Positions 21,279 to 49,791 are shown, counted from the stretch's first letter. The stretch is 64,000 bases of DNA from an uncultured delta proteobacterium (GCA_963771465.1 CAVYTU010000017.1:768001-832000), one strand, 5' to 3'. A program made the numbers and translations. The notes: generated by a model from the letters alone, not told the origin.

Positions 21279-21403
21279 TCGACCTTTTGGTCGGGCATCT
21301 CGACTGTTTCGTCGTACCGTCCCAGTGTTTGCTTCCGTCACGCTAGATATTACCCAGCGATGTTAGCTGTCTTCCTGATTGCGAGCACTGGCACATAAGC
21401 TGC
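21279..21403 (+). promoter_or_regulatory. Regulon promoter P1: tandem UAS + sigma54 -24/-12
   Basis: TCGACC-TTTT-GGTCGG (21279), TCGACT-GTTT-CGTCGT (21300), TGGCACATAAGCTGC (21389). Confidence 0.85.
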
Positions 21404-21448
21404 TCTCATAGTGATTGAGAAAAGATATTAGAAAGAAGGTGCCTGACT

Positions 21449-21598
21449 ATGAGCCTGCTGTTGTTGATCGTATTAGTTCTGTTGCTGGTCGGCGGTTTGC
21501 CCAACTGGGGTTATCATAAGTATGGCTTTGCGCCCTCCGGTTTCGCCGGAACGGTGCTGCTCGTCGTGGTCATTTTGCTTTTGACCGGCCGGCTTTAA
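21449..21598 (+). CDS. DUF3309-family small membrane protein, copy A
   Basis: MSLLLLIVLVLLLVGGLPNWGYHKYGFAPSGFAGTVLLVVVILLLTGRL*; below the ORF-track cut-off. Confidence 0.85.
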   Translation: MSLLLLIVLVLLLVGGLPNWGYHKYGFAPSGFAGTVLLVVVILLLTGRL

Positions 21599-21706
21599 AG
21601 AGACCGCAGAGAATTTAAGGCACAGGGTTTCATTCCGGAGGTTACTAGAAATTCTTCGAGTAAGCCTGACTCGACCCTGCTAATCAGTACAACCGAGGAG
21701 GCTGCG

Positions 21707-21935
21707 ATGAAAAAATTAATGTTAGTGTTAGTGCTGTTGATCGGCGTCAGTCAAAGCGGCTGTGCATTCTTGGGCGGCGCGGCGGTAGGCAGCCTTGGGC
21801 ACTGGCGCGGGTTACGAAATCAATGCTAATAGCCAGATGGGCAAGTTGGAAAATGATTACAAAGCCGAGAGAATCTCTCGAAGTGAATACCTAGCTCGTA
21901 AATCGCAGATCGAAAAAGGCTCGATCATCTATTAG
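21707..21935 (+). CDS. Small glycine-rich lipoprotein, copy A (extra G near 21797)
   Basis: MKKLMLVLVLLIGVSQSGC lipobox; one base longer than copies at 31681 and 39321. Confidence 0.75.
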
Positions 21936-22120
21936 GAAACATCATTATTCTGTTCGATCGTATCGCTTCGGATTTAGTCCTAGACCCAAGACTCAATAGA
22001 CTCCCGAAGCGGATGGTTCAAAGAGCAAATAGGCGAATCGTCGCAGCACGGGAAGTTGAACGCTCGCGCTGCGACGATCTTGCGAGGTAGCCAAGGATCA
22101 GCTTAGAAAGGGATAGTATT

Positions 22121-22609
22121 ATGGCCTTTAGCAACGCCTGGTCGAACTGGTGGCGCGGTGTTCTCGGGCCTTCTCCTGATACAAATCAAAAGGTGATTGA
22201 GATCTTGTGCCAGCGGTACGTCGATGAGATGCAGCGAATCGAACGGTTTAAGCAGTATGCGGAGAAGATGCACTACCCGCAGTATCGCGACAAACTCCTG
22301 CGCATGGTGACGGAAAAAAGTCACCATGCCGAGCGGATTGGCGAGCGCATAGTCGCCGTCGGAGGTCTGATGCCGGACGTGGTCGACCAGCGCTCGACCG
22401 CACAAAACAGTTGGCGCTCTTTGTCGATGGCTCTCGACGAGGAGAGTCGCTCGGCCGACCGTCTGGAAGAGCAACTCCGGAGCATTCAATCCGAGCACGC
22501 CGACATCGCCCAATTCCTGCAACAGATTTCTCAAGAGCAAGAGAATCACCGTGTGGTAATCCGCGATATGATGATGCGCAGCGATCCGTTTGCGCTCTCG
22601 CTCGCTTAG
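22121..22609 (+). CDS. Ferritin-like domain protein
   Basis: Four-helix pattern EKSHHAERIGERIVAVGG and EQENH. Confidence 0.7.
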   Translation: MAFSNAWSNWWRGVLGPSPDTNQKVIEILCQRYVDEMQRIERFKQYAEKMHYPQYRDKLLRMVTEKSHHAERIGERIVAVGGLMPDVVDQRSTAQNSWRSLSMALDEESRSADRLEEQLRSIQSEHADIAQFLQQISQEQENHRVVIRDMMMRSDPFALSLA

Positions 22610-22713
22610 GACCAAGCTTAGCTCGCCCTCTCGAAGTACAACATTCGCAGAATCCAAAACGCATCGTTACACGTTTTCATCGCGGTGATTCAGTGAGATC
22701 TGAATGATCCAAA

Positions 22714-22838
22714 CCGACCCTTTGGTCGAGAGTCTCGACGCTTTCGACGGAACTCTCTCCGCTTCTCGCTGCCAGACTATACAAAGCGATCGGATCACCT
22801 AGCTTTTTCCGCACTACAAGCCGTGGCACAGAGCTTGC
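22714..22838 (+). promoter_or_regulatory. Regulon promoter P2: tandem UAS + sigma54 -24/-12
   Basis: CCGACC-CTTT-GGTCGA (22714), TCGACG-CTTT-CGACGG (22735), TGGCACAGAGCTTGC (22824). Confidence 0.88.
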
Positions 22839-22878
22839 GCATTCTTAGTTCGATCGTCCCAAGAGACAAACTATCTAT

Positions 22879-23073
22879 ATGCTTGCAACCATTTTGATCG
22901 TCGTCATGATTTTGTTGCAGACAGGTGCGCTGTCACTGACTTTCATGATCGATCGACGATTTATTACCGCGGCGGTGAGGTCGAAACGTAAATCGGCTCA
23001 CTCAACAATACATAACCGGGAGCGGCCCAAAAGGCGCCGGTCTCGGAAACAGGGAGGTGCTTTATGCCTTTAG
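22879..23073 (+). CDS. Small membrane ORF, possibly a decayed DUF3309 paralog
   Basis: MLATILIVVMILLQTGAL resembles DUF3309 N-termini; first ORF after P2. Confidence 0.35.
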   Translation: MLATILIVVMILLQTGALSLTFMIDRRFITAAVRSKRKSAHSTIHNRERPKRRRSRKQGGALCL

Positions 23074-23282
23074 TTCAACTCGTAGTCGTCCTGATCGTGG
23101 TTGGTGTTCTGCTCGGCCTGGTCAATCGCTACATACCGATGGCAGGATCGATCAAATCGATTCTCAATGGCGTTGTCGTCATCGGCGTAGTGCTGTGGCT
23201 GTTGAATGTTTTCGGGCTCATTAACTCGATCTCGGCGATCCGTGTGGGGAAGTTGTCTTGGCTCGGCGCCATCGGCGCATAG
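23064..23282 (+). CDS. Thivi_2564-family small membrane protein
   Basis: MPLVQLVVVLIVVGVLLGLVNRYIPMAGSIKSILNGVVVIGVVLWLLNVFG; RBS GGAGGT. Confidence 0.8.
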   Translation: MPLVQLVVVLIVVGVLLGLVNRYIPMAGSIKSILNGVVVIGVVLWLLNVFGLINSISAIRVGKLSWLGAIGA

Positions 23283-23359
23283 TTGTGGCGAAGAGGACTC
23301 CCGAAGTTTCCAACCAGCCTGTAGTGTAACCGATAATCAGTGATCATGGAGTACCGTCT

Positions 23360-25930
23360 ATGTTGTATTGGTCACTGTTTTTTCTTTGTGTTACTCTAGC
23401 CGCGGGGCTACTAGGAATTGCTTTCACTGCGGCGCACGCGCGAAAAACTTTGCCGGCGCTCTATCCACACATTCGCTGGAACTGGGCGACTACTATTCCA
23501 ACTGGGTTCAGACGTTTGCGCGCGAGAGCACTGGCGGTGGCTCGCTTCACCAAACGACATTGGTGGCGAGGCATCCTTAATCTGGTAATTTGCACAACGC
23601 CGATAATAGCCGCTGTCGTGTCAATCGGAATTTATCGCGTCTATTTTGACCGCAAAGATTTGCCTGACATAGAAGCTTTCGTCCGCTTTGAATTTCCTAC
23701 CATCGGCACCGTCTACGATGCCAACGGCCAGCCGCTCATTGAACTGGCAAAAGAGTACCGCAAGATCACCCAGTATGAGGACATTCCGGCGATTGTTCGT
23801 GATGCCATCATCGCGACCGAAGACAAACACTTCTTCTCCCATAGCGGCGTTGATTATTCGGCATTTCCTCGCGTGCTGGGCAAAGTCAGGATTCGGGTTC
23901 TGGCGGCAGGGCTCACAGGTTTCGGCGGGCAAGACGAAGTTGAGAGCCCGGCGCTTCTGCCGCAAGGTGGATCGACGATCACTCAACAGCTCGTGCGCGG
24001 TCATTTTCTCAAAAACCTGACGGCGAATGAAAACAGCCACCAGCTCCAGCATGCCGGAATCGTACCGGGCGCGCTGTCTGCCGTGGTCGGCGGCCGGACC
24101 GTCAACATGCTGGTTCGCAAGCTGGAGGAGATGCGCCTCTCGTTGTGGCTCGAAAAAGCGATGGAGAATCGTTTCGGCTCGAAACGCAAGGCTAAGGAAG
24201 AGATTCTCGCCCGCTATGCCAGTTTCATTTACATGGGAAACAGCCAGTACGGGTTTGCCACCGCAGCGGAATATTATTTTGGCCGGCCGCTCGCCACTTT
24301 CACCGCCGATGACGCCGACAAGGCAGCGCTCCTCGCCGGCATCGCCAAGTCGCCGCGTTACTACGCTCCCACTGCGAAGGACAGCTCAAGGGTGTTGCGC
24401 CGCAGGAACCAAACCTTGGCGCTCATGGCAGGGAACGGTTTTATTTCTCGGGACACAAGGAGTGCAGCCGAACAGCGCCCAATTCAGGTGATCGCGCAGC
24501 GCAAAAGCAAGATGCTTGGGGCGCCCGCGGTCATGGATAATGTCCTTCAGGAACTCAAGCGCCGCGGCGACCTCGGCGTTGAGGATATTCTGCAAGGGCG
24601 TATCCAGGTTTACTCGACGGTGGATGTTCGCATGCAGCAACTGGCCAACCAGGCCCTGGAGCGCGGCCTCGAGCTCTACGAGCGGCGACACCCGAGTGCC
24701 AAAGGGATAGTCCAAGGTTCTGTGGTCGTGTTGAGGAACCGCGATGCGAGCATTCTCGCCGAGACGGGCGGCCGTCAGTTCTACAAGAACCGCTCCGCCG
24801 CATACAGCGACTTTAACCGCGTCACCAACTCCCTGCGGCAACCTGGATCAACGATGAAACCCATGGTTTATCTCGCTGCTTTTCGACAGGGAGGCTTTAA
24901 TCTTGAGACCGTGGTTCCCGACGAACCGATCGGTGTGCCGGACGGCGAGAAGCAGAATACGAAATGGATCTCGAACTACGATAAAACATTCAGAGGCATG
25001 ATTCCGCTCCGCGAGGCGCTCGCAGAATCCAGAAACGCCGTGGCGATTTGGCTCACGGGGGAGATCGGCATTGGCAGTGTTCTGGGCACGTCACGGAGTC
25101 TCGGGGTCAAGACGCGATTGCAGCCCTATGCGACGACGGGGTTGGGCGCGTCCGAAGTAAATTTGCTGGAGCTCGCCAATGCGTACCGCGCCATGGCATC
25201 GGGGATCTTCGCCGAGCCGTATGTGATCCGAAAAATCGTCCGCGATTCAGGCGAAGTGATGACCGAAAACGCAATGGAGCAGTCTGCGGTCAATATCAAC
25301 GACTCCGCGCTCGCGCTGATTCAGGAAGGCTTGCGCGGTGTGGTGCGTATGCCCAGCGGCACGGCCCATACGCTTAACTCTAACGTTTTCCCAATCGCGG
25401 TCATGGGCAAGACCGGGACGACAAACGAGTTCAGAGATGCGCTCTTTGTCGGCTCGACTTACGGCGCCGACGGCATCACCATCGCCGTCCGTGTCGGCTT
25501 CGACGATAACCGTTCGCTCGGAGCCAATGAAACCGGCGGTCGGCTGGCGTTGCCGGTTTTCAAAGAACTCATGCTCAACGTGTACCGCGAAAAGTTGGTC
25601 GGCGCCGCGCCCAAGTTTCCGCCGCAGATGGAGCAGAATATTAGCGATTATTTGGCGGGCGGCACCGTCGCAACGGGAGAGCCGTTAATCGAATTTAACC
25701 CTGTCAAATTTGCCAGTGCCCCTTTCGGTGCGTTTGACGGATCGCGGCGAAGCGTCTCAAGGACAGCCGTAGAAATATTTCAATCAAAATGTCTAAAATT
25801 GGACTGCGATCTATGTCAATTTGATCGACAATTCAAAAGTCTTCAAAAACTTATGGAAACTTTGAATAGACGGGATATCCTCCAGGAAGTTTCTAACCGA
25901 ATGCGGGTATTCCGGGTGGTATGTGGTTGA
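23360..25930 (+). CDS. Class A penicillin-binding protein (transglycosylase + transpeptidase) with DUF1328-like N-terminus
   Basis: EDKHFFSHSGVD, GGSTITQQL, RKLEE, QPGSTMKP (SxxK), SRN (SxN), GKTGT. Confidence 0.9.
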   Translation: MLYWSLFFLCVTLAAGLLGIAFTAAHARKTLPALYPHIRWNWATTIPTGFRRLRARALAVARFTKRHWWRGILNLVICTTPIIAAVVSIGIYRVYFDRKDLPDIEAFVRFEFPTIGTVYDANGQPLIELAKEYRKITQYEDIPAIVRDAIIATEDKHFFSHSGVDYSAFPRVLGKVRIRVLAAGLTGFGGQDEVESPALLPQGGSTITQQLVRGHFLKNLTANENSHQLQHAGIVPGALSAVVGGRTVNMLVRKLEEMRLSLWLEKAMENRFGSKRKAKEEILARYASFIYMGNSQYGFATAAEYYFGRPLATFTADDADKAALLAGIAKSPRYYAPTAKDSSRVLRRRNQTLALMAGNGFISRDTRSAAEQRPIQVIAQRKSKMLGAPAVMDNVLQELKRRGDLGVEDILQGRIQVYSTVDVRMQQLANQALERGLELYERRHPSAKGIVQGSVVVLRNRDASILAETGGRQFYKNRSAAYSDFNRVTNSLRQPGSTMKPMVYLAAFRQGGFNLETVVPDEPIGVPDGEKQNTKWISNYDKTFRGMIPLREALAESRNAVAIWLTGEIGIGSVLGTSRSLGVKTRLQPYATTGLGASEVNLLELANAYRAMASGIFAEPYVIRKIVRDSGEVMTENAMEQSAVNINDSALALIQEGLRGVVRMPSGTAHTLNSNVFPIAVMGKTGTTNEFRDALFVGSTYGADGITIAVRVGFDDNRSLGANETGGRLALPVFKELMLNVYREKLVGAAPKFPPQMEQNISDYLAGGTVATGEPLIEFNPVKFASAPFGAFDGSRRSVSRTAVEIFQSKCLKLDCDLCQFDRQFKSLQKLMETLNRRDILQEVSNRMRVFRVVCG

Positions 25931-26321
25931 ACCGTGTAGGTTAAGTACTGAAAACTTCCTCCTCTTTAATCCTAAGGAGAAAAAGATGGGGGAGATTTCG
26001 ATCCCCGATGAGTGGCTCGACGACCCGCACCAACGGAGCACCATCGGTGAATCGCTTGCGACGACGATCGAAAATTGCAAGGACGCTATTCCTAAGCGCG
26101 TCTAAGTTCTTCCCTTCATCCCGCCCTTGAGCTGTTCCGCGGCGGCGCGGCCGAGAACACGGCCTTAGATCGCCGCGGTTGGTTTGTCTTTCTCTCTCCC
26201 TTAGCCTCGCAATAGTTCTTTCGCGACCGTCCGGTATTGGACAGCATTCGATCCTGGTTACGTGCATGATGTGCGTCGAATAGCGCTTATCCAAAAAGCG
26301 CCATTTCAAAAGGAGTCTCAG

Positions 26322-28382
26322 ATGAAAACGGTAAAAGTTATTTTATTGGTGATGGCGGTACTTCTGCTGCCCAGATTCGCCGATGCATTAGACCTCGGTT
26401 CTGTGCGAATCAGCTTTTTGGAAGGCGATGTCCAGATGAGGACGACCGAGGCGGATGACTGGGTCCCTGCCGCGATTAACACACCTCTCGATGAAGGCGA
26501 CGAATTATGGGTGCCGGAGGGCGGCAGGATGGAGTTTCAGCTCAACACCGGGACTGCCGTGAGACTGGACCAGAATTCAGCGTTGCAGATACTGACTCTC
26601 GAGAGCAATTCTTCCCAGTTTTATCTAACTGAGGGGCATGTGTATGTGGATCATAATGCCCCGCGCGGTCATGTCCTCCAGTTCGACACCCCAGTATCAT
26701 CCCTGCGCGCCTATGACCGATCAGTTTTTAGAGTCGATGTCCCTGATCAGTATACCGATGTCTCGGTGTTTCGCGGTTCAGTAGACGCGGAAGGAAGCGA
26801 TGGCAGGACGCGGGTCAGCGCGGGCAGGACTCTGACACTCGGCGAGGGCAGAGAGGCGGAACTCTCGCCGGTCGGACGGGCCGATGCCTGGCAAAATTGG
26901 AATACTGAACGAGATCGGCGGTTCGCATTACGTGGAGACAGTTACCGATATCTCCCCGAAGAACTGCGAGTTTACTCCAGAGATTTGGATGACAATGGAA
27001 GGTGGATACAGGTTTCGGAATACGGTTACGTATGGACACCCCGCTCGGTCTCAACGGACTGGACGCCCTACCGAACCGGGAGGTGGATGTGGAGAGGCGG
27101 AGATTATGTATGGATAGGCTCTGAGCCCTGGGGATGGACACCGTATCATTACGGCAGATGGGCCCATGCTCCCCGAATCGGATGGTTTTGGGTTCCGCCC
27201 CAGCGGCGCCAAGTCTACTGGGGTCCCGGATACGTGGGGTGGGTTAAGACTCGCGATCACGTCGCTTGGGTGCCGCTGGCACCGCGGGAAGTGTACTACG
27301 GTTATGGCAACTACGGTCCGAACAGCGTGGACATTAGAAAGCGCAATGTAAGAGAGATCAACATAACCAACATCACCTACAAGAATGTGCAGGTGAACAA
27401 CAGCGTGACGGTCATCAATAATAATAGCTTCGTGAGCGGACGGCGCGATGTGGTCAATGTCAGAGAGAACCCGTTCTTGACCGAGAAGATAAACGTCGGC
27501 AGGCCGGACATAAAACCTGAAAAGGCGAGTTTTGCGCCGGTGGTAAAAACCATCGACCCCGCCAAGCTGCCGCCGCAGCAAGTCACCAAAATAGCGGTGA
27601 AAGATCTCAAACAAGAAAGGCGACTAGTCAAAGAGCAAAATCAGTCCGTGATCAACAAGGGTGAGCCGGTAAAATCCTTGGTCGTAAAGGCCGTGGCGCA
27701 ACCCAAGAGCCCAACGGAAAAAGTGCAAGAGCGTCAGCAGAAGGGCGCGAGCGCAGCAGCAGGAGAAACCCCTCGGGTGAAGAGTGAAGAAAAGTCTGCG
27801 AGCTCGAGCGCACCGCCTGCTGAGACCAAGGCAACAAAGGGCGGCAGTCCGTCAACCCCTCAACCGGCGGCGAAGCAAGCGGAGAGCGCTCGCGAAAAAG
27901 CGCAAGAGCCCCGGCAGACGCAGATGGAAAAGGGTAAGAGCGGTCCAGCAGTGGAAAGCCCCAGAGCCAAGGGAGAGGAAAAGTCCGCAGGCCCCGCCGC
28001 AACCACCGAGACAAAGGAGACTAAAGGCCGCAAGAGTCCTGCGCCAGTGTCTGAAACAAAACCTGAATCAACGGTCGAGCCGAGAGACAGAAAGTCGCCG
28101 CGGGCTGAAGAAAAGGCTGCAACCCCGGTCAAACCGGTCGAGACAATCGAGAGGAAAAGCGCAAAGCAATCAGGTCCTGACGACGGGCAAAAGTCAACGC
28201 CAAGTTCCGCTAAGGCCTCGAAGGCGAGCGATGAAACTAAAGGCAGCAAGCAAACCGTGGCGGAAAAAAAGGAATCAAGAGAAGAAAAGAAGGTCAAGAA
28301 AGAGGAACTCGACAGCAAGGGGAAATCCACTGAGACCAAAGAAGAGAAGATCGAGGAAAAACAGAAAACTCGCGATCAGTAG
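26322..28382 (+). CDS. Exported FecR-like + DUF6600-like (W/G/Y-rich) protein with long low-complexity K/E/S tail
   Basis: Signal peptide, AAINTPLDEGDELW, WTPYRTGRW, EPWGWTPYHYGRW, VAWVPLAPRE. Confidence 0.78.
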   Translation: MKTVKVILLVMAVLLLPRFADALDLGSVRISFLEGDVQMRTTEADDWVPAAINTPLDEGDELWVPEGGRMEFQLNTGTAVRLDQNSALQILTLESNSSQFYLTEGHVYVDHNAPRGHVLQFDTPVSSLRAYDRSVFRVDVPDQYTDVSVFRGSVDAEGSDGRTRVSAGRTLTLGEGREAELSPVGRADAWQNWNTERDRRFALRGDSYRYLPEELRVYSRDLDDNGRWIQVSEYGYVWTPRSVSTDWTPYRTGRWMWRGGDYVWIGSEPWGWTPYHYGRWAHAPRIGWFWVPPQRRQVYWGPGYVGWVKTRDHVAWVPLAPREVYYGYGNYGPNSVDIRKRNVREINITNITYKNVQVNNSVTVINNNSFVSGRRDVVNVRENPFLTEKINVGRPDIKPEKASFAPVVKTIDPAKLPPQQVTKIAVKDLKQERRLVKEQNQSVINKGEPVKSLVVKAVAQPKSPTEKVQERQQKGASAAAGETPRVKSEEKSASSSAPPAETKATKGGSPSTPQPAAKQAESAREKAQEPRQTQMEKGKSGPAVESPRAKGEEKSAGPAATTETKETKGRKSPAPVSETKPESTVEPRDRKSPRAEEKAATPVKPVETIERKSAKQSGPDDGQKSTPSSAKASKASDETKGSKQTVAEKKESREEKKVKKEELDSKGKSTETKEEKIEEKQKTRDQ

Positions 28383-29434: not shown

Positions 29435-29560
29435 CCGACTGTTTAGTCGAAAGTCTCGACGCGATTGACGAGGTGCCTTGGCATTTCTCTTTTCCATTCC
29501 GAAAAATCCCGAGCTAAATCCGGCCGTCTCCGACATTTCAGCGTGCGGCACAACAGTTGC
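29435..29560 (+). promoter_or_regulatory. Regulon promoter P3: tandem UAS + sigma54 -24/-12
   Basis: CCGACT-GTTT-AGTCGA (29435), TCGACG-CGAT-TGACGA (29456), CGGCACAACAGTTGC (29546). Confidence 0.85.
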
Positions 29561-29613: not shown

Positions 29614-29790
29614 ATGGACAAAATCATTCTGATTTTGCTGATCGGAATTTTCGGTTGGTGGATAGGAAACATGACGGGACAAGCTGCTTATGAGCCGGTA
29701 TTTGAAACCGACCCTAGCGAGATCGATATGATCTTCGGGATTGTCGGCGCTTCAGTCAGCGGTTACTTGTATGCGATTGTGCCCCGGTAG
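29614..29790 (+). CDS. GlsB/YeaQ/YmgE-like small stress membrane protein (divergent)
   Basis: ILLIGIFGWWIG...DMIFGIVGASVSGYL pattern; first ORF after P3. Confidence 0.55.
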   Translation: MDKIILILLIGIFGWWIGNMTGQAAYEPVFETDPSEIDMIFGIVGASVSGYLYAIVPR

Positions 29791-29972
29791 CTAAAAACCG
29801 CCGAGCGAATGAAACCCAACTTTCGCTCTTTGTTTGCGTCCGCATTGGAGCAACCCGACGGCTTTTTAATGTCATCGAGTGTTGGACTGGAGTATGGCGA
29901 TGATTCTAAATCATCATCAGCAATAGCAACCCGATCCTTGCGCAAGGATCCGAACATTGAATGGAGATCAGT

Positions 29973-30185
29973 ATGTGGAACAAAGATGAGATCAAAGGCA
30001 AGGGTAAGCAAATCACTGGGGCGATCAAGGACAAGACGGGGGAATTGACTAACAATCCCAAGCTCGAAGCTAAGGGCGAAGCCGAACGCAGCGTTGGAAA
30101 ACTTCAGGAGCAGAGCGGCAAAGCGCGCCGGAAAACCGGTGAAGCAATTCAGAAGGTCGGCAAGGCGATTGCCGGCAAATTATAA
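29973..30185 (+). CDS. csbD: CsbD-family general stress protein
   Basis: MWNKDEIKGKGKQITGAIKDKTGELTNNPKLEAKGEAERSVGKLQE. Confidence 0.9.
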   Translation: MWNKDEIKGKGKQITGAIKDKTGELTNNPKLEAKGEAERSVGKLQEQSGKARRKTGEAIQKVGKAIAGKL

Positions 30186-30301
30186 CTCGCGAGTTAGCTT
30201 ACTGACTCGTACCACGTTTGGCAGCAGAGAGTTGTTTAATCAACTCTCTGCCGCCGGGCAACCCATAGCGGAGCTGCTGACCGCGAACGGAGGACACCGT
30301 G

Positions 30302-30721
30302 ATGTATTCCTCATCGCCATTTTCCCGTTTCGCCAAGTGGACGGCACGAGCCACCGGCCATCCGGCGGCATTCGTCGCCGCCGCTTCGATCATTGTAGGC
30401 TGGGGCGTGACGGGCCCGATATTCAAGTTCAGCGACACGTGGCAACTGGTCATAAACACCGGCACGACGATCGTCACGTTCCTGATGGTATTTCTGATTC
30501 AAAATACCCAGAACCGCGATAGCCACGCCGTCCAACTCAAGCTCGACGAACTGATTCGCGCGGTGGGCGGCGCGCACAATGCGTTGCTCGACCTCGAAGA
30601 GCTTGAAGAAGCAGATCTCGAGCGCTTTCGCGCGCGCTATGAAGAACTCGCGTGCGCTGCACGGGAAGCGCTGGGGCGTGGGGAATTGGATACCGGCACG
30701 CCGGAAGTCAGATCGGATTGA
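30302..30721 (+). CDS. Low-affinity iron permease family small membrane protein
   Basis: FSDTWQLVINTGTTIVTFLMVFLIQNTQNRD...QLKLDELIRA. Confidence 0.92.
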   Translation: MYSSSPFSRFAKWTARATGHPAAFVAAASIIVGWGVTGPIFKFSDTWQLVINTGTTIVTFLMVFLIQNTQNRDSHAVQLKLDELIRAVGGAHNALLDLEELEEADLERFRARYEELACAAREALGRGELDTGTPEVRSD

Positions 30722-31153: not shown

Positions 31154-31209
31154 CGGCCGTTGACTAGTGCAGCGGTAAATCGCAAACGTGAATGAAAGGA
31201 GAATCTGAC

Positions 31210-39951: not shown

Positions 39952-39966
39952 CAAAGAACGTAGCCG

Positions 39967-41075: not shown

Positions 41076-41200
41076 CAGTCTTTTTGGTCGAATGGCTCGA
41101 CGATTCGGTCGAGCTTACTCTTGATATTCATCGTCGACGCGCCGGTAATCTATCGGAAACTCCAGCTTTCGTTCGTGACAAAACGTGGCACAAATAGTGC
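41076..41200 (+). promoter_or_regulatory. Regulon promoter P7: tandem UAS + sigma54 -24/-12
   Basis: CAGTCT-TTTT-GGTCGA (41076), TCGACG-ATTC-GGTCGA (41097), TGGCACAAATAGTGC (41186). Confidence 0.85.
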
Positions 41201-41257: not shown

Positions 41258-41587
41258 ATGATTCAATCGTTAATGAACAAGTCGCCGATGCTAGTGCTGG
41301 CAGGCACGCTTATGGTTGTCGGTTGTTCGGGAGGGCCGCTCACGACCCGTGAAAAGGGCGCCGGGATCGGTGCTGTCGGTGGCGCCGTTGCGGGCGGGCT
41401 TATTGGCGCCGCAGTTGGCCATCCAGGCGCTGGGGCGGCGATAGGCGGTGGTTTGGGCTTGGGCGCGGGTGCTTTGGTCGGTGACCAATTGCAGGGCCAA
41501 GAAAATCGCAGCTCTAGCCAAGACGCACAAATCCAGCAAAACCAATATGAGATCGACCGGTTAAGACGAGAACGCGGAGAATACTAA
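41258..41587 (+). CDS. Glycine-zipper lipoprotein
   Basis: VVGC lipobox; REKGAGIGAVGGAVAGGLIGAAVGHPGAGAAIGG. Confidence 0.85.
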   Translation: MIQSLMNKSPMLVLAGTLMVVGCSGGPLTTREKGAGIGAVGGAVAGGLIGAAVGHPGAGAAIGGGLGLGAGALVGDQLQGQENRSSSQDAQIQQNQYEIDRLRRERGEY

Positions 41588-41788
41588 AACTGACAGTCGA
41601 TCATCAGATCGGCAGCGGGAGAGAGTTTCGTCCTCCCGCCGCCGATCTCCATGTCTGGATCTACCGGAAGCAGTTTTCCAGAGTGTACCCAACAATAAAT
41701 CAGCACTGCGTGATCGGAAAAAATAAATAGGCACAAGAAAACTCCCTACGGTAGCCACGGGCCACGAGCATTCGAGATTTTACCGGTG

Positions 41789-42937
41789 ATGGAAGTACAG
41801 ACTCACAGCGACGATGCGCCGGAAGTTTCATTGGAAACTGTCGGCGATGGCACGCTCGTCGTGCAACTGTCCGGTAGTTGGCGACTGCAAAACAACACTG
41901 CCTCTGCCAACCCGATCCAAAGCGCAATCGCGACCTCCCATATCCGACGGGTTCGCTTCGATACCAAAGCACTCTCATCGTGGGACAGCAGCATACTGAT
42001 GTTTTTGCTGAAAGTGACTGAGCTGTGCCGCCAACAGGACATTGTCACCGAGCGCGAAGGATTGCCGAACGGGATTCGGCGACTGCTCGAACTCGCCGAG
42101 ATAGTGCCGGAGCAAAAAGGAGCCAAACAGGCGACGGATCCGCCGTCTTTGTTGGCCCGGGTCGGTAACAGCTCGATCGCTTCTTACATCTCTTTGTCGG
42201 AGATGCTGCACTTTCTCGGCGAAGTGACGTTGGCGTTGGTCAAGCTCGTCAAGATGCGCGCGCGCTATCGAACCACCGATCTGTTCATGATTGTCCAAGA
42301 ATGCGGCCCGCAAGCTCTGCCCATCGTTACACTCATCAGCTTTCTAGTCGGTGCGATCTTGGCATTTGTCGGCGCGGTTCAGTTGCAGCAATTCGGCGCC
42401 CAGATTTATGTGGCGGACCTCGTGGCCATCGCCGTGGTTCGCGATATGGGCGCGATGATGACCGGGATCATCATGGCCGGTCGGACCGGCGCCGCGTTCG
42501 CGGCAAAGCTCGGCACGATGAAAGTGACCCAGGAAATCGACGCATTGATCACGCTGGGATTCTCGCCGCTGGAATTTCTTGTGCTGCCGCGCGTGATCGC
42601 GCTTTTCCTGATGATGCCTTTGTTGTGTCTGTACTCCAACCTGATGGGAATCTTGGGTGGCGCTGCGGTGGGCTTGTGGATGCTCGACCTTTCGTTGACC
42701 ACTTACTACCACCAGACCGTTAATGCAATTAGCTTAACGGCCCTGTTTGGCGGCGTCTTTAAAAGCGTAATTTACGGCGTGCTGATCGCCCTTTCGGGAT
42801 GTCTGCGCGGTATCCAGTGTGGTGCCAGCGCTGCGGCAGTCGGCGAGGCTACGACCTCCGCCGTGGTCACGAGCATCGTTTTTATCGTCGCCGCCTGCGG
42901 TGTCTTGTCCGTGATATTTCATATCATTGGGGTTTGA
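41789..42937 (+). CDS. mlaE: MlaE-family ABC permease with N-terminal STAS-like domain
   Basis: WDSS STAS motif, MAGRTGAAFAAKLGTMKVTQEIDAL, VGEATTSAVV. Confidence 0.9.
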   Translation: MEVQTHSDDAPEVSLETVGDGTLVVQLSGSWRLQNNTASANPIQSAIATSHIRRVRFDTKALSSWDSSILMFLLKVTELCRQQDIVTEREGLPNGIRRLLELAEIVPEQKGAKQATDPPSLLARVGNSSIASYISLSEMLHFLGEVTLALVKLVKMRARYRTTDLFMIVQECGPQALPIVTLISFLVGAILAFVGAVQLQQFGAQIYVADLVAIAVVRDMGAMMTGIIMAGRTGAAFAAKLGTMKVTQEIDALITLGFSPLEFLVLPRVIALFLMMPLLCLYSNLMGILGGAAVGLWMLDLSLTTYYHQTVNAISLTALFGGVFKSVIYGVLIALSGCLRGIQCGASAAAVGEATTSAVVTSIVFIVAACGVLSVIFHIIGV

Positions 42938-42938
42938 G

Positions 42939-43727
42939 ATGAACAGTGAAAGTCCAAACCAAATCGCAGCCGACGCGGCAATTACCGTGCGCAATCTTAC
43001 CCTTGGCTACGGCTCGGTCGTCTTGATGCGCGATCTCAACTTTACGGTCAAGCGGGGAGATGTGTTTATCATCATGGGCGGCAGTGGCTGCGGCAAGAGC
43101 ACGTTGCTGCGCAACATGATCGGTCTGATCGAACCGAGCGAGGGAGAGATCTTCTACGAAAAGGCGAATTTTACCCGCTCGGATGCCGAGGAGCGGCGCA
43201 GTTTTTTTCGTCGCTTTGGCGTCTTGTATCAGAGCGGTGGGCTGTGGAGCTCCTTGACTCTCGCCGAGAACGTCGCACTACCGCTGGAAGAATACACCGA
43301 TCTCGGTCCGAACGAGATTCGCGAGATCGCGGCATTCAAGCTCGCGCTGGTCGGTCTTAACGGCTTTGAAGACTATTACCCGTCGCAGATCAGCGGTGGC
43401 ATGCAGAAGCGCCTGGGATTGGCCCGCGCTATCGCGCTCGACCCCGAGGTGCTTTTCTTTGATGAACCTTCGGCCGGGCTCGATCCCATCAATTCGCGTC
43501 GGCTCGACGACCTGATCTTGGCGGTGCGCGACAGCTTGGGCACGACGGTGGTTGCGGTCACGCACGAGTTGCCAAGTATTTTTGCCATCGGTAATAACAG
43601 CATTTTTCTCGATGCTGAAACTAAAACTGCGATTGCCGGCGGTGATCCCAAGGAACTGCTCGCCCATTGCGAAAATGCCAAGGTGCGAGAATTTCTCACC
43701 CGAGGAGAAGGGCGGCCGGATGAGTAA
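42939..43727 (+). CDS. mlaF: MlaF-family ABC ATPase
   Basis: GGSGCGKST, ISGGMQKR, FDEPSAGLDP. Confidence 0.92.
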   Translation: MNSESPNQIAADAAITVRNLTLGYGSVVLMRDLNFTVKRGDVFIIMGGSGCGKSTLLRNMIGLIEPSEGEIFYEKANFTRSDAEERRSFFRRFGVLYQSGGLWSSLTLAENVALPLEEYTDLGPNEIREIAAFKLALVGLNGFEDYYPSQISGGMQKRLGLARAIALDPEVLFFDEPSAGLDPINSRRLDDLILAVRDSLGTTVVAVTHELPSIFAIGNNSIFLDAETKTAIAGGDPKELLAHCENAKVREFLTRGEGRPDE

Positions 43728-44721
43728 AAAAGCCAATCCGACGCTCATCGGTGCCTTCGTGGTCGGCGCCATCTTTTTGGTTGTCGGCGCGGTTACGATC
43801 CTGGGCTCGGGGCGGCTGTTCCACAAAACCTATGAGTTTGTCCTCTACTTCGAAGGCTCGGTAAGCGGCCTACGAGAAGGCGCGCCGGTGAAGTACAAGG
43901 GCGTCGAAATCGGCGCGGTTACCAAGATCGTACTGCAACTCGATAACGGTGCGGAGACTAATCGAATTCCGGTAATTATCAAACTCGATGCCAAAAAGAT
44001 CAGCGGCAGGGGAGTCGGCGGCAATTTGACAGATCCAGCCGGGCTCAAAGCGGCAATCGACCGGGGGCTGCGCGGGCAATTGCAGACCGAAAGTATCGTT
44101 ACCGGTGTGCTGTTCGTGGCGCTCGATCTTGATCCTGATAGCCCGGCTAAATTCGTTCAGTCAGCGGGCTCACGGTATCAGGAAATCCCGACGGTCTCGA
44201 CGACGCTGCAAAAAGCGCAAGATATCCTCGGCAAGCTGCTTGCCAAGCTCGATGATGTTGATTTCAAACAGTTACTCACCTCCATTACTGACGCGGTTAA
44301 AAATATCGAAGGGCTGGCGAATAACAAGGATCTGCGGGAAACCTTTGCCGGGGTCAATCAATTAGTCAATAAGCCTGAGTTGCATGCGGCCATCCGCTCT
44401 CTCGATCAAACGGTGGTGAAAATTTCTCAAGCCGCCGACGGCGTTCACACGGTTGCCGGAAGTTTAGATCGCGGCGTCGCTACGCTCTCGGCAGATTTGA
44501 AAGAGACGCTGACCGGCGTTCGTGATGCGGTCAAGCAGATCCAGGTCACGGTGGCAAACGTGGACGGCTTCGTCGACCCGAACTCGCCGACCGCTTATGA
44601 ATTGACCAAAGCTGTGAAAGAGTTTACCGGCGCGGCGCGGTCGCTCAGACTAATGGCCGATTTTATCGAACGGAATCCTCGGGCGCTCTTATTCGGTAGG
44701 GCGGAAAGCGAGAAAAAATAA
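43720..44721 (+). CDS. mlaD: MCE/MlaD (PqiB-like) protein
   Basis: MSKKANPTLIGAFVVG, GLREGAPVKYKGVEIG, ERNPRALLFGR. Confidence 0.9.
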   Translation: MSKKANPTLIGAFVVGAIFLVVGAVTILGSGRLFHKTYEFVLYFEGSVSGLREGAPVKYKGVEIGAVTKIVLQLDNGAETNRIPVIIKLDAKKISGRGVGGNLTDPAGLKAAIDRGLRGQLQTESIVTGVLFVALDLDPDSPAKFVQSAGSRYQEIPTVSTTLQKAQDILGKLLAKLDDVDFKQLLTSITDAVKNIEGLANNKDLRETFAGVNQLVNKPELHAAIRSLDQTVVKISQAADGVHTVAGSLDRGVATLSADLKETLTGVRDAVKQIQVTVANVDGFVDPNSPTAYELTKAVKEFTGAARSLRLMADFIERNPRALLFGRAESEKK

Positions 44722-45353
44722 TGACTGGGGTGACGAGAAGGATTCTAGCAATCGTCGCGGTGTGGGTTTGGTTTGGCGGTTGTGCCACCTTCGCCCCGCG
44801 AGCCGATCCGTCAAGTTTCTATGTCCTTGACGCTCTACCCGAGGCAGACTTGCTGGTAGAGATTAGCACAGCCGGCGTCAATGCCAATTTTACCGTAGGC
44901 CTTGGCACCATTGAATTACCCGGTTACCTCGACCGCCAACAGATCGTCACCCGCACTTCCAACAATCGATTGAGCTATTCCGAGAACGACCGTTGGGCCA
45001 CGCCGTTAGCCGAAAACTTCAGTCGCGTTTTGGGGCAAAATATTTCGCATCTTCTTAAACCCGCGCAAATGATCCAGTTCCCCGGGCAAAGTACCGACGT
45101 ACCGGATTACCAGGTGAAAATAGAGGTGATCCAATTCGAGGCCAACAGCGATCAGCAGGTTTGGCTGATCGCGCGCTGGAGCGTGATCGACAGAAGCAAA
45201 AAAATTCTGGTCCACCAAAGATCGCAACTGAATCGGCGCGCCGGATCGTCAGCCACCGAAGATTTCGTGAAAGGGTTGAGTGCGACACTCGGGGATCTGA
45301 GCCGTGAAATCGTAAAAACTTTACTGTCTTTGGAGAAGCAGGATAAAACGTAG
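44721..45353 (+). CDS. PqiC-like ABC auxiliary lipoprotein
   Basis: FGGC lipobox; LPGYLDRQQIVTR...DRWATPL. Confidence 0.85.
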   Translation: MTGVTRRILAIVAVWVWFGGCATFAPRADPSSFYVLDALPEADLLVEISTAGVNANFTVGLGTIELPGYLDRQQIVTRTSNNRLSYSENDRWATPLAENFSRVLGQNISHLLKPAQMIQFPGQSTDVPDYQVKIEVIQFEANSDQQVWLIARWSVIDRSKKILVHQRSQLNRRAGSSATEDFVKGLSATLGDLSREIVKTLLSLEKQDKT

Positions 45354-47186: not shown

Positions 47187-47309
47187 TCGACCGTTTGGTC
47201 GAAACTCTCGACGCTTTTGCCGAGCCACGTCTATTGTCCGTCCTGAAGGCCTAAAAATCTAATGGAAATCCAGTGCGTTTCTTTCCAAAGGGTCTGGCAC
47301 ACAACCTGC
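47187..47309 (+). promoter_or_regulatory. Regulon promoter P8: tandem UAS + sigma54 -24/-12
   Basis: TCGACC-GTTT-GGTCGA (47187), TCGACG-CTTT-TGCCGA (47208), TGGCACACAACCTGC (47295). Confidence 0.88.
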
Positions 47310-47326
47310 TGTTACATAGAACTACA

Positions 47327-47575
47327 ATGAAAACCGGCGATTCACTTCGAACTACAATGCCTATTCGGTCGCGGAATACAGGTGTTGTTTTGCCGCGACA
47401 AGGGACATTCATTAGGGACGTCGAAAATTTGGGACGCAAACTGATTCTGGTTGATTTCGGTTCGGCAGGGGAAGAGTACTTACTTCCGAACGAAATATTG
47501 GACGAGCCACGAAGCGTGGAATCGGTAGCCGGGCTTCGGTTGGGAATGCCAAGAGGTTTGAACCCATTGGGTTAA
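47327..47575 (+). CDS. Small hypothetical protein (predicted beta-rich)
   Basis: First ORF after P8; GTFIRDVENLGRKLILVDFGSAGEEYLLPNEI; start uncertain (47327 or 47357). Confidence 0.55.
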   Translation: MKTGDSLRTTMPIRSRNTGVVLPRQGTFIRDVENLGRKLILVDFGSAGEEYLLPNEILDEPRSVESVAGLRLGMPRGLNPLG

Positions 47576-47609
47576 GAGTGACATGGAGAGAAGCAAACGG
47601 AGTAAAAAT

Positions 47610-47750
47610 ATGAATTGTCCGCGCTGCGAAAAATACATTGTGCCTGAGTTTTATTGCATAAACTGTGGCTACGTGCCGCCAAGGATGCAGTACCCCGATC
47701 CGAATAATATCGCTGAACTTGAGATCCCAATGAGCCTCAGCGGACGGTAA
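47610..47750 (+). CDS. 46-aa putative zinc-ribbon protein
   Basis: GGAG RBS; MNCPRCEKYIVPEFYCINCGYVPP (CxxC-x9-CxxC). Confidence 0.55.
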   Translation: MNCPRCEKYIVPEFYCINCGYVPPRMQYPDPNNIAELEIPMSLSGR

Positions 47751-47849
47751 GACATCAAGCTAAGCCTCTCACCTGCGCTTTCTCTGATTAATGTTACGGG
47801 CGTCTGGCTCAAGGTAAATCCGATCAGGCGAAAGAAAGGAGAAACTAAC

Positions 47850-47924
47850 ATGAACAGTATTGTCTATATAGTTGGTCTTGTTGTCGTAGTGCTTTTCGTT
47901 GCCGGCTTTCTTGGACTGAGGTAG
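47850..47924 (+). CDS. 24-aa single-TM membrane peptide, copy B
   Basis: RBS AAAGGAG; MNSIVYIVGLVVVVLFVAGFLGLR*. Confidence 0.8.
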   Translation: MNSIVYIVGLVVVVLFVAGFLGLR

Positions 47925-48081
47925 CCCCGGGGCCTCGCGAATCACGCGGAACTTCACCGATAGTTTTATTTACACCTTTCTAATACTGGACCGCGAGTGG
48001 AAAAACCGCCAGCTAGCACGGAGCTGGAACGGGATTTCATTTTGGCGGATCTACAAAGCGCAGTCGAGGAGGACTACGGTC

Positions 48082-48561
48082 ATGACGATTTCCACAAATG
48101 AAGACGTGATTGCCGGAGACGACCTTACCGTTCATGGAAAAAAGCAGCTTCATACCGACGACATCGCCGGCACGGCGAAGCCGGCTCCCGAAAAATTCAT
48201 CGAGGCGAAACGTAGCGATGGTAACGTTAACACTAAAGTAGATCTCGAACCGCTTTTCGCTGACGGTGTCGACCGGGATTTTCGCAATCGATGGCGCGAT
48301 ATTCAGTCGGGTTTCGTTGACGAGCCGCGCGCGGCCGTAGAGCAGGCCGATCAACTGGTGGCGCAGTTAATGCAGAGATTGGCGCAAAGCTTTTCGGAGC
48401 AGAGAAGCAACCTGGAAAAACAGTGGGAAGCGGCCGAGAAAGTTTCCACTGAAGAGCTGCGGGTAGGGTTCACTCGATATCGCTCTTTTTTTGAACGTCT
48501 CCTTTCTATCAACGGGGCTGACGGGGCAACCACGGCAATTCCTCGCGCGTCAACAGCATAA
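48082..48561 (+). CDS. Conserved hypothetical helical protein
   Basis: RWRDIQSGFVDEPRAAVEQADQLV...STEELRVGFTRYRSFFERLL. Confidence 0.75.
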   Translation: MTISTNEDVIAGDDLTVHGKKQLHTDDIAGTAKPAPEKFIEAKRSDGNVNTKVDLEPLFADGVDRDFRNRWRDIQSGFVDEPRAAVEQADQLVAQLMQRLAQSFSEQRSNLEKQWEAAEKVSTEELRVGFTRYRSFFERLLSINGADGATTAIPRASTA

Positions 48562-48785
48562 CTTTAAAATCCAATGCAACGCCGGCGCGATGCCACTGGT
48601 CGCGACGCCTCTGCACGGAAGGAAAGGCCGCTTAATAAATGTTTTAAGGACCGTTCACTATTGGACAGCAGTGTCTGCCGAATCGGCGTATCTCATCGAA
48701 CAACTGGTGCGCCTAGGGCAGGGACAAATTCGCATGAGTTTGTTTCGAGGATTAACGAGCTATCAGATTCGATACGGAGGTACAG

Positions 48786-49376
48786 ATGGAAACGTTAGAT
48801 ACCCAAACATGGATTATACTTGCTGCGGTTGTAGTCCTTGCATTGGTTGCCCTTGGGGCGTGGATTTTCTACCAAAAAAATCAATCCCACAAGCTCCAAG
48901 ATCGATTCGGGCCGGAGTATGGCCGAACCGTGAATGAATTGGGCAGTCGAACCAAAGCAGAGTCGGAACTTAAGGCGCGCGAAAAGCGCGTCGAGCGGCT
49001 CGAAATCATTGCGCTCGCGCCATCGGAAGCCGCCAGATTCACCGAGGCCTGGCAAGCATTACAGGGCCGATTCGTCGACAACCCCAAGGGAGTGGTTGTC
49101 CAAGCCGAACAGCTGGTTCGTGAGCTGATGGAAAAGCGCGGTTACCCCATGGGTGATTTTGAGCGCCGTGCGGGCGATATTTCGGTCGACCATCCCGACG
49201 TTGTGGCCAATTACCGATTGGCGCAGGCCATCGCTGTGCGCGATCGTCAGGGCACGGCGGACACCGAGGAGCTGCGCAAAGCGGTCGTGCATTACCGTGC
49301 GCTCTTCGATGAGCTGCTCGAGGTGAGGGCGGCGAAGCAAGAAATTATCGTCGAGAAACGCGTTGCGGCGCGCTGA
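48786..49376 (+). CDS. Membrane-anchored conserved hypothetical protein homologous to 48082..48561
   Basis: N-terminal TM, RFGPEY, WQALQGRFVDNP...DTEELRKAVVHYRALFDELL. Confidence 0.8.
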   Translation: METLDTQTWIILAAVVVLALVALGAWIFYQKNQSHKLQDRFGPEYGRTVNELGSRTKAESELKAREKRVERLEIIALAPSEAARFTEAWQALQGRFVDNPKGVVVQAEQLVRELMEKRGYPMGDFERRAGDISVDHPDVVANYRLAQAIAVRDRQGTADTEELRKAVVHYRALFDELLEVRAAKQEIIVEKRVAAR

Positions 49377-49403
49377 AAAAAGCAGCCTGGTTAGGAGAAT
49401 CCC

Positions 49404-49619
49404 ATGGAACGAACGTACAAGAAAATTGAAATCGTCGGCATGTCTGAGACCAGCTTCGGCGAGGCCACTCAAAACGCTGTGGCGAAGGCCTGTCAGTCGC
49501 TACGCCACGTCGACTGGTTCGAAGTGACCGAAATGCGCGGGCTGGTTGAGAAAGACAAAGTCAAAGAATTCCAGGTCACCGTGAAGATCGGGTTTCGCCT
49601 GGAAGACCAGCCGGCATGA
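49404..49619 (+). CDS. Dodecin (flavin-binding)
   Basis: TYKKIEIVGMS...SLRHVDWFEV...FQVTVKIGFRL. Confidence 0.93.
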   Translation: MERTYKKIEIVGMSETSFGEATQNAVAKACQSLRHVDWFEVTEMRGLVEKDKVKEFQVTVKIGFRLEDQPA

Positions 49620-49668
49620 ACCGCAGATGACGAAACTACGAAAAACCGTCGAGAACGCCTGCGCCAGA

Positions 49669-49791
49669 CCGACCGTTTGGTCGACGTCTTCGACGCTTTC
49701 GCCGGGTGGGTTCGCGGATTACCGCAATCCGTTGGGGAATGTTTGGCGAAAATCGCCTTTGTCCGGCGCCAAGGCGCGGCATAACAGTTGC
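49669..49791 (+). promoter_or_regulatory. Regulon promoter P9: tandem UAS + sigma54 -24/-12
   Basis: CCGACC-GTTT-GGTCGA (49669), TCGACG-CTTT-CGCCGG (49690), CGGCATAACAGTTGC (49777). Confidence 0.87.

Follow-up and report, generated by a model that had tools for sequence, protein, structure and literature searches.

What coordinates a run of eight co-directional transcription units, about 40 genes in all, in the genome of an uncultured delta proteobacterium? The run lies within a 64,000-nucleotide stretch of that genome (GCA_963771465.1, CAVYTU010000017.1:768001-832000), which we call the window and number from its first letter, and each unit is preceded by a sigma-54-type promoter with a tandem palindromic enhancer at a nearly fixed distance upstream. 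An earlier note on this DNA had proposed that a single activator co-regulates the whole set through these elements, a proposal that is supported by the presence of a single rpoN gene, the confinement of the composite element to nine places in the genome, its conservation in relatives, and its linkage to one sensor-activator operon. We conclude that the elements probably form a conserved sigma-54 regulon, in which the two-component system whose genes close the cluster has nine promoters under its control, including the eight found in the window:

21279..21403, + strand: promoter 1, with tandem enhancer 21279-21315, spacer, and -24/-12 element TGGCACATAAGCTGC at 21389-21403
near 21414, + strand: predicted start of transcription from promoter 1
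22714..22838, + strand: promoter 2, with tandem enhancer and TGGCACAGAGCTTGC at 22824-22838; orthologous promoters occur in relatives
29435..29560, + strand: promoter 3, with tandem enhancer (site 1 is CCGACTGTTTAGTCGA) and CGGCACAACAGTTGC at 29546-29560
30904..31026, + strand: promoter 4, with tandem enhancer and TGGCATGGATAGTGC at 31012-31026
38881..39005, + strand: promoter 5, with tandem enhancer and CGGCACGTAAGCTGC at 38991-39005
41076..41200, + strand: promoter 6, with left half CAGTCT in site 1, TCGACGATTCGGTCGA as site 2, and TGGCACAAATAGTGC at 41186-41200
47187..47309, + strand: promoter 7, with tandem enhancer and TGGCACACAACCTGC at 47295-47309
49669..49791, + strand: promoter 8, putatively autoregulatory, with tandem enhancer and CGGCATAACAGTTGC at 49777-49791; it fronts the orthologous operon in relatives

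The palindrome YCGACY-N4-RGTCGA yields 11 strand-matches at eight places in the window, against 0.05 expected and a highest count of 2 in any of 100 dinucleotide-preserving shuffles; the earlier note had named a motif equally frequent in coding or random DNA as an outcome that would refute its reading. Composite elements are present at all eight coordinates which that note had listed, each of them intergenic, on the + strand, and upstream of a gene start, as it had described. Seven of these (21279, 22714, 29435, 30904, 38881, 47187, and 49669) contain a strict palindrome, whereas the element at 41076 departs from the strict pattern in its left half, CAGTCT, while its right half is well preserved and its second site, TCGACGATTCGGTCGA, nearly perfect; the same degenerate left half recurs in the orthologous promoters of two relatives. 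The second site, reported earlier to lie 21 bp downstream, begins exactly 21 bp after the first in 8/8 cases. The composite element of the window can thus be written as TCGACC-NTTT-GGTCGA, followed 21 bp on by TCGACN-NTTT-NGNCGA and then, 108-111 bp after the start of site 1, by a GG-N10-GC promoter. A further strict match at 58201 was set aside as a chance occurrence, as it lies inside a long open reading frame (ORF) and has no TTT centre, second site, or sigma-54 element.

The coupling between enhancer and promoter is equally regular. Elements resembling TGGCAC-N5-TTGC start 110, 110, 111, 108, 110, 110, 108, and 108 bp after site 1, reproducing exactly the distances given in the earlier note, with GG and GC 10 bp apart in all eight and 8-10 of 10 consensus positions matched. 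For comparison, a sigma-54 element lies 105-112 bp downstream of 1775 of 200,000 random genome positions (0.9%). Plausible start codons follow the GC of the -12 element by 18-57 nt in every case, and the site centres fall ~126 and ~105 bp upstream of the predicted start of transcription. This agrees with the pair of dyad-symmetric sites, 80-150 bp upstream of -24/-12, that is expected of an enhancer, and the sites are conserved together with the activator. The genome encodes a single RpoN (494-amino-acid open frame on contig C14, Sigma54_DBD match of 214 bits). When the enhancers of the window were pooled with those of loci fetched from relatives and identical copies were removed, 51 of the 56 unique enhancers had a promoter at 106-111 bp, calling promoters at 7 or more of 10 consensus positions with GG and GC in place. 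Among these 51, the distance was 109 bp in 24, 110 bp in 13, 108 bp in 8, 111 bp in 5, and 106 bp in 1.

An alignment of these 51 promoters, drawn from the window and its relatives, resolved the fine structure of the element. Site 1 reads TCGACC-NTTT-GGTCGA, and its centre is NTTT on the promoter-directed strand in 46/51, which gives an otherwise symmetric dyad an orientation. In site 2, TCGAC is retained on the left, and the right half, G-N-CGA, is the weaker one throughout; position 13 of this site is A in 25 promoters, C in 16, T in 7, and G in 3. Within the -24/-12 element, GGC and TGC are invariant. The alignment does not bear out a compensatory change that had been proposed at 29435: positions 6 and 11 of site 1 form C.G in 38 promoters, show a single change in 12, and form T.A once, at 29435 itself, a distribution without covariation. 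The spacers are otherwise variable, except for a conserved 28-bp element extending from 41 to 14 bp before TGGCAC (for instance at 21348-21375), which consists of an A-rich stretch followed by GGAAA-N7-TTTCC and is centred near -49 from the predicted start. By eye, this -49 element does not match the consensus of integration host factor (IHF); it could bind a bending protein, a second regulator, or the Crp-like regulator of the cluster. Taken together, the nearly constant distance, the orientation of the T-tracts, and the weakness of the second site suggest that the assembly is under geometric constraint.

Two of the window promoters are paralogous. Promoters 1 and 5 belong to regions (21279-21935 and 38881-39548) that share 83.8% identity over 672 bp, and the nearby Crp-like genes at 20462-21144 and 39966-40647 are 80.6% identical; the duplicated pair, which the earlier note had labelled P1/P6, is accordingly that at 21279 and 38881. 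This represents a segmental duplication at 80-84% identity in which the promoter, the DUF3309 gene, the lipoprotein gene, and also the Crp-like gene were copied. The small lipoprotein gene exists in three copies, as 21665-21937 also resembles 31639-31910.

We then asked how specific this element is to the cluster, using a 37-bp weight matrix trained on the eight window sites to scan the complete 6.9-Mb assembly (19 contigs, 55.7% G+C, 99.4% complete, 6.3% contaminated). The eight window sites score 39.5-52.6 bits and one other site, C18:26403, scores 43.2 bits; the next best match in the genome reaches 24.0 bits, and 16 matches exceed 18 bits in the 6.9 Mb. As those eight sites had served to train the matrix, the independent results are the ninth site and the gap in scores. 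The composite element is thus confined to nine places in the genome, with nothing else close. The additional degenerate promoter which the earlier note had counted was not identified, no further site in the window scoring above 18 bits. The ninth site is a complete promoter with its enhancer inverted, as CGGCACGAGCCTTGC follows on the opposite (minus) strand, 115 bp away when counted from where the strong site begins, together with a lipoprotein gene:

G000 C18:26289-26439 (L151 10289-10439), minus-strand promoter: ninth promoter, upstream of a gene for a 78-amino-acid Arg/Asp/Tyr-rich lipoprotein

Conservation of the element was evaluated across 41 genomes (this one and 40 relatives) with a pattern comprising site 1 and the left half of site 2, allowing up to 2 mismatches. 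The pattern was matched in 25 of the 41, against 0-2 matches per strand per genome for a reversed-pattern control, and in each of five genomes of the same genus (G014, G015, G018, G019, and G020), 5-11 sites cluster on a single strand of a single contig. Across 27 loci fetched for closer analysis, namely the clustered regions and the eight closest activator loci, 50 enhancers score above 25 bits. The sites, the 21-bp offset, and the ~109-bp distance are kept across species while flanks and spacers diverge, and promoters can be recognised as orthologous by their first gene, encoding a DUF3309 peptide, a Thivi_2564-family protein, an entericidin-family lipoprotein, a zinc-ribbon peptide, a Gly-zipper lipoprotein, or an OmpA-domain protein. 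In a sister family of the same order (G025, G027, and G029), tandem sites are followed by a sigma-54 element at 99, 101, 101, 110, and 111 bp; these two distance classes, about one helical turn apart, hint at a face-of-helix constraint, for which five promoters are at most suggestive.

The element is also linked to one particular operon. Downstream of promoter 8, at the end of the cluster, lie genes for a secreted protein, a histidine kinase, and an activator:

49836..50548, + strand: secreted protein with a collagen-like stretch, split here into 49836-50189 and 50114-50548
50817..52586, + strand: sensor histidine kinase with HisKA, HATPase_c, and an sCache_3_2-like region
52587..54010, + strand: NtrC-family response regulator/enhancer-binding protein with receiver, AAA+, and Fis-type helix-turn-helix (HTH) domains

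The same operon of OmpA-domain protein, kinase, and activator is found downstream of an enhancer in loci L055, L057, and L059, and an enhancer is present at seven of the eight loci with the closest orthologs, the exception (L053) having only 1.2 kb of upstream DNA. An enhancer precedes the kinase-activator operon in every examined genome with enough upstream DNA. Among 24 genomes of the same genus, a site with at most 1 mismatch occurs in 7 of the 8 genomes that have an activator ortholog of at least 79% identity, with the enhancer 3.5-4.5 kb upstream of the activator on the same strand in those 7, and in 3 of the 16 that do not (G002, G003, and G012). Since these genomes are kin, this association does not amount to statistical proof. 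The closest ortholog records are all metagenome-assembled and are labelled Deltaproteobacteria, Thermodesulfobacteriota, or Candidatus Binatia, with no cultured relative among them.

The domain content of the activator is that of a canonical enhancer-binding protein. Besides an AAA lid, it contains a receiver (Response_reg, 3.6e-32), a sigma-54 interaction domain (Sigma54_activat, profile positions 83-167, 1.1e-34), and an HTH domain (HTH_8, 3.7e-15), and the intact ortholog L055:5457-6878 shows this architecture in full. Its closest solved structure is ZraR (1ojl, E = 1.2e-63). We compared the system to named families using the whole-protein cut-offs of NCBIfam equivalogs, and both regulator and kinase fell under all of them: the intact ortholog scored 526.1 of 714 for AtoC, 439.7 of 760 for ZraR, and 434.7 of 558.6 for NtrC, and its kinase 244.8 of 479 for ZraS and 231.8 of 646 for AtoS, ZraS and AtoS being also the best named matches of the window kinase, both under cut-off. 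Orthologs of the first gene encode 283-330 amino acids in three intact operons, and the two that were scanned combine a collagen-like stretch with a C-terminal OmpA peptidoglycan-binding domain. In relatives, the kinase (578-620 amino acids) and the regulator (458-473 amino acids) are uninterrupted.

In the window assembly, however, the activator is spread over three frames by two 1-base insertions, near 53034-53037 and 53262: frame 1 encodes the receiver, frame 2 the Walker A motif GESGTGKE and GAFTGA, and frame 3 the remaining AAA+ domain, the lid, and the HTH. Three DNA runs from separate studies yielded contigs, 90-99% similar to the window, that have one base fewer at 53034 or 53037 and at 53262; in the first gene of the operon, related-strain contigs carry an additional base following 50089 and are a base short at 50457, from which it follows that related strains have intact frames. 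Further split genes in the window include the lipoprotein gene at 21707-21935 and a PAS histidine kinase gene at 55656-57343, and two more activator genes are split elsewhere in the genome (G000 C17:491019-491386 and C5:30768-31233). Given that so many genes of the window and two further activator genes are split, the single-base frame changes look like assembly indel errors rather than gene decay.

If these frameshifts were genuine, the regulon would be silent in this strain, and the promoters would be relics of a system that is real in the lineage. We consider this improbable. The three-frame activator, the split first gene of the operon, and the other split genes of the window, such as the lipoprotein gene and the PAS kinase gene, are what it would predict, yet none of the eight enhancers and promoters is inferior to its counterparts in relatives, contigs of the three DNA runs do not have the extra bases at 53034/53037 and 53262, and the sheer number of split genes, including the two activators elsewhere, rather points to assembly indels. 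It is harder still to credit that the element is non-regulatory, as a dispersed repeat of the repetitive extragenic palindromic (REP) or miniature inverted-repeat transposable element (MITE) type, or as an RNA hairpin such as the terminator of the upstream gene, a reading that we regard as highly implausible. Both GGTCGA-N5-TCGAC and TCGACC-N4-GGTCGA can fold, each element lies just downstream of a gene end, and a terminator scan flagged the inverted repeat between the sites at 30913-30931, which is followed by a T-rich tail. This was nonetheless the only one of the eight elements to be flagged, in a scan whose terminator-like matches were at chance level (26 vs 22.6 and 25 vs 21.2 expected between 20000 and 56000), and the stems measure 5-6 bp. 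Conservation is limited to the half-sites, to the interval between them, and to how far they lie from -24/-12, with diverging flanks and spacers, and the element is absent from coding DNA and occurs 9 times in 6.9 Mb. A GG-N10-GC promoter at 109 +/- 2 bp in 51/56 cases argues against a mobile repeat.

A different doubt concerns the identity of the protein that binds the sites. The sigma-54 promoters could be real and the binder another of the ~27 enhancer-binding proteins of this genome, or the Crp/Fnr-family regulator encoded at 39967-40647 (paralog at 20462-21144); in the latter case, the target of the adjacent activator would have to lie elsewhere, and could be the spacer element. The genome is rich in AAA+ activators (35 matches to the sigma-54 interaction domain, corresponding to about 27 activator genes), a palindrome of 16 bp around a 4-bp centre would be compatible with the usual shape of Crp/Fnr-type sites, and the Crp-like gene is conserved as part of the regulon, even being the first gene after the enhancer in L058. 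Tandem sites 80-130 bp upstream of -24/-12 are, on the other hand, canonical for enhancer-binding proteins, and proteins of the Crp type are unable to open the sigma-54 complex. The enhancer also fronts the kinase-activator operon wherever there is enough upstream DNA, and its presence tracks that of the ortholog at 79% identity or more (7/8 vs 3/16). The contigs encoding a more distant paralog (64-66% identity) in G014 and G015 have no site with 1 mismatch or fewer, the single 2-mismatch match in G015 being more than 40 kb away. A different binder hence appears unlikely to us, and from this linkage and co-occurrence the activator at 52587..54010 would be the protein that binds the sites.

Several observations weigh against control of the nine promoters by this two-component system. 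The activator does not occupy a single reading frame in the window assembly, and with ~27 other enhancer-binding proteins in the genome, its assignment rests on linkage and co-occurrence among kin genomes. Two relatives, G002 and G003 (84% and 88% complete), have 2-3 good sites and no ortholog of at least 79% identity was found in them, the cluster of sites in G003 lying at a contig end; conversely, G001 (65% complete) has the ortholog and no site at 1 mismatch or fewer. On its own, the sigma-54 motif shows only weak enrichment across the window (16 matches at 1 mismatch or fewer vs 8.95 expected, a count reached by 2/100 shuffles), the signal being the fixed enhancer-to-promoter distance and not the motif by itself. 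Five of the 56 enhancers have no promoter at the standard distance, namely L059:5, L133:12756 (distance 115), L134:19879 (at the end of the locus), L137:18475, and the inverted C18 site. Contigs of a metatranscriptome library (X15) cover 26 of 30 bins of 49600-54100, and one contig starts at 49642, before the promoter 8 enhancer; these contigs show no start of transcription and, as DNA carry-over is possible, are not evidence of transcription or of a start site. Finally, the proposed role in stress rests on family names, and many of the targets are without an assigned function.

If the favoured reading of a sigma-54 regulon under the two-component system is correct, activation could proceed as follows. 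The kinase, perhaps with the secreted OmpA-domain protein that would be co-transcribed with it and the activator, would sense an envelope-related signal. By analogy to NtrC, phosphorylated dimers of the activator would fill both the strong distal and the weaker proximal site, which share one face of the helix, and the bound dimers would assemble the active AAA+ ring. The intervening DNA would then loop, probably aided by the -49 element through a bending protein or second regulator, and the AAA+ ring would spend ATP to open the complex of sigma-54 holoenzyme at GG(-24)/GC(-12). Promoter 8 would provide positive feedback, allowing the system to amplify itself. This mechanism is the textbook one for sigma-54 and its enhancer-binding proteins, and what appears to be new is the operator sequence and the gene set. 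The rigid module formed by oriented T-tracts in both sites, the distance of 109 +/- 2 bp (shorter by one helical turn in some promoters of the sister family), and the -49 element may nevertheless represent a pre-set nucleoprotein assembly rather than a position-independent enhancer.

Comparison with characterised systems helps to delineate what sets this regulon apart. The activator shares with NtrC the order of receiver, AAA+ domain with GAFTGA, and Fis-type HTH, and its promoters share with glnAp2 the tandem 6-N-6-type dyad sites ~100-140 bp upstream of a GG/GC promoter, along with the predicted autoregulation of the regulator operon. The NtrC site is TGCACC-N5-GGTGCA, whereas the half-sites here form TCGACC-N4-GGTCGA, are repeated 21 bp apart, and lie at a tightly fixed distance from the promoter; the targets would be stress genes here and are nitrogen genes for NtrC, and the intact ortholog, at 435 bits, is below the 558.6-bit NtrC cut-off. 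The ZraSR and AtoSC systems of Enterobacteria include the best-scoring named families for kinase and regulator as well as the closest structure, ZraR, and ZraSR is an envelope stress system that regulates its own operon. Scores are however far under the equivalog cut-offs (ZraR 440/760, AtoC 526/714, ZraS 245/479), no ZraP-like gene was detected among the 51 window proteins scanned against Pfam, and nine promoters with ~40 genes contrast with the single zraP/zraSR locus. The 21-bp fimS site described as protected by ZraR in the text of PMC13577287 is likewise unrelated to the operator reported here.

In the main texts of PMC3333781 and PMC4641369, DVU3305 of Desulfovibrio vulgaris is a sigma-54-dependent response regulator assigned to the general stress response. 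As described there, it resembles the present system as a sigma-54 two-component activator acting on its own operon and on stress-induced membrane and hypothetical genes, and differs in its GAFSGA motif, its Lon-protease response regulator partner, and its UspA-type and kdp targets (PMC3333781, PMC4641369). Neither TCGAC nor GTCGA strings occur in the main texts of these two papers. More generally, no description of this operator or regulon was found in the literature searched, from which Desulfovibrio supplementary motif tables and regulon databases were excluded, and the impression recorded in the earlier note that the operator is unfamiliar agrees with the lack of a matching motif there.

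What such a regulon would do can be approached through the genes it governs. The extents of the units were predicted from gene direction and from the absence of other recognisable promoters; between 20000 and 56000, scans for sigma-70 promoters (12 vs 12.5 and 8 vs 10.7 expected) gave chance-level counts, as did the terminator scans above, and hence neither helps to delimit transcription units. Upstream of the sensor operon, the units comprise:

21449..22609, + strand: unit 1 (promoter 1), predicted extent
21449-21598, + strand: DUF3309 peptide
21707-21935, + strand: small lipoprotein, frameshift-split
22121-22609, + strand: ferritin-like protein
22879..28382, + strand: unit 2 (promoter 2), predicted extent
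22879-23073, + strand: small hydrophobic ORF
23064-23282, + strand: Thivi_2564-family membrane protein
23360-25930, + strand: class A penicillin-binding protein (PBP1)
26262-28382, + strand: FecR/DUF6600 protein
29614..30721, + strand: unit 3 (promoter 3), predicted extent
29614-29790, + strand: 58-amino-acid membrane peptide
29961-30185, + strand: CsbD-like protein
30299-30721, + strand: low-affinity iron permease family protein
31073..38745, + strand: unit 4 (promoter 4), predicted extent, ~12 genes
31073-31153, + strand: 26-amino-acid DUF3309-like peptide
31210-31284, + strand: 24-amino-acid hydrophobic peptide
31627-31908 and 31915-32553, + strand: two lipoproteins
32626-32937, + strand: BON protein
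32983-33285, + strand: YtxH protein
33944-35176, + strand: GT4 glycosyltransferase
35219-35872, + strand: Fe/Mn superoxide dismutase
36113-36799, + strand: unknown protein
37372-38745, + strand: PLD-family (cardiolipin-synthase-like) enzyme
39050..40647, + strand: unit 5 (promoter 5), predicted extent
39050-39199, + strand: DUF3309 peptide
39321-39548 and 39556-39951, + strand: two lipoproteins
39967-40647, + strand: Crp/Fnr-family regulator
41258..45353, + strand: unit 6 (promoter 6), predicted extent
41258-41587, + strand: Gly-zipper lipoprotein
41786-42937, + strand: STAS-MlaE protein of an Mla-like transporter
42927-43727, + strand: ATPase of the Mla-like transporter
ending at 44721, + strand: MlaD-domain protein of the Mla-like transporter
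44721-45353, + strand: auxiliary lipoprotein of the Mla-like transporter
47327..49619, + strand: unit 7 (promoter 7), predicted extent
47327-47575, + strand: 82-amino-acid unknown protein
47583-47750, + strand: zinc-ribbon peptide
48082-48561 and 48786-49376, + strand: unknown proteins
49404-49619, + strand: dodecin

These genes fall into a few broad classes. Small membrane peptides are represented by DUF3309, by other hydrophobic peptides of 24-72 amino acids, and by the Thivi_2564-family protein; CsbD, BON, YtxH, and dodecin would, by family, group with general stress; and the Fe/Mn superoxide dismutase, the ferritin-like protein, and the low-affinity iron permease family protein are linked to oxidative stress and iron. 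An envelope class includes the Gly-zipper and other lipoproteins, the Mla-like ABC transporter, the class A penicillin-binding protein, the FecR/DUF6600 protein, the glycosyltransferase, and the PLD-family enzyme, and a regulatory class contains the Crp/Fnr-family regulator and the sensor operon itself. In relatives, the units also include entericidin. BON/OsmY-like, YtxH, Gly-zipper, ferritin-like, and superoxide dismutase genes are typical members of general stress regulons (sigma-S, sigma-B). In Sphingopyxis, the EcfG general stress response acts directly on csbD and ecnAB (PMC7083833). The output of the regulon would thus be a programme of envelope or general stress protection, as far as family names allow it to be judged.

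The sigma-S, sigma-B, and EcfG regulons depend on sigma-70-family factors controlled through partner-switching or proteolysis, whereas sigma-54 and an ATP-dependent activator would provide the switch here. Their gene families overlap with those of the present regulon, CsbD and entericidin being EcfG targets in Sphingopyxis (PMC7083833). No proteobacterial RpoS scored above cut-off in the genome (best 294 of 378.7 bits), which is weak evidence, and either of two other sigma-70-family genes, of 335 and 519 amino acids, might encode another general stress sigma factor. If the regulon is a true general stress response, it would imply that such a response can be built on sigma-54 and ATP-dependent activation and not on a sigma-70-family factor. 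It offers a concrete and testable circuit for an uncultured soil lineage, with an operator, nine promoters, a sensor pair, and ~40 targets, and a shared physiological context for small uncharacterised proteins including DUF3309, the Thivi_2564 family, zinc-ribbon peptides, and lipoproteins. The 51 natural promoter variants, in turn, provide a data set on how enhancer geometry constrains sigma-54 activation.

The surroundings of the cluster include other genes and elements that stand apart from it. Just upstream, on the minus strand, a Lon protease gene and an Hsp20-family gene (16869-19810) have no enhancer motif; these stress genes adjoin the regulon but apparently lie outside it. A sigma-54-like element at 40907 has no enhancer upstream. 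Downstream of the sensor operon, an intergenic sigma-54-type element with one mismatch to TGGCAC-N5-TTGC, TGGCATGGTGTTTGC at 54540-54554, precedes a stand-alone receiver-domain gene (54625-54984) by 70 bp; no TCGACC-type enhancer occurs within 140 bp upstream of it, and it therefore presumably answers to a different activator. We also considered a mobile island and rejected it, as neither tRNA genes nor an Rfam family were detected and the composition shows no break across 20-56 kb. Farther on, the segment 56001-60000, with minus-strand ORFs at 57734-59257, reaches 61.7% G+C, against 51-56% elsewhere in the window.

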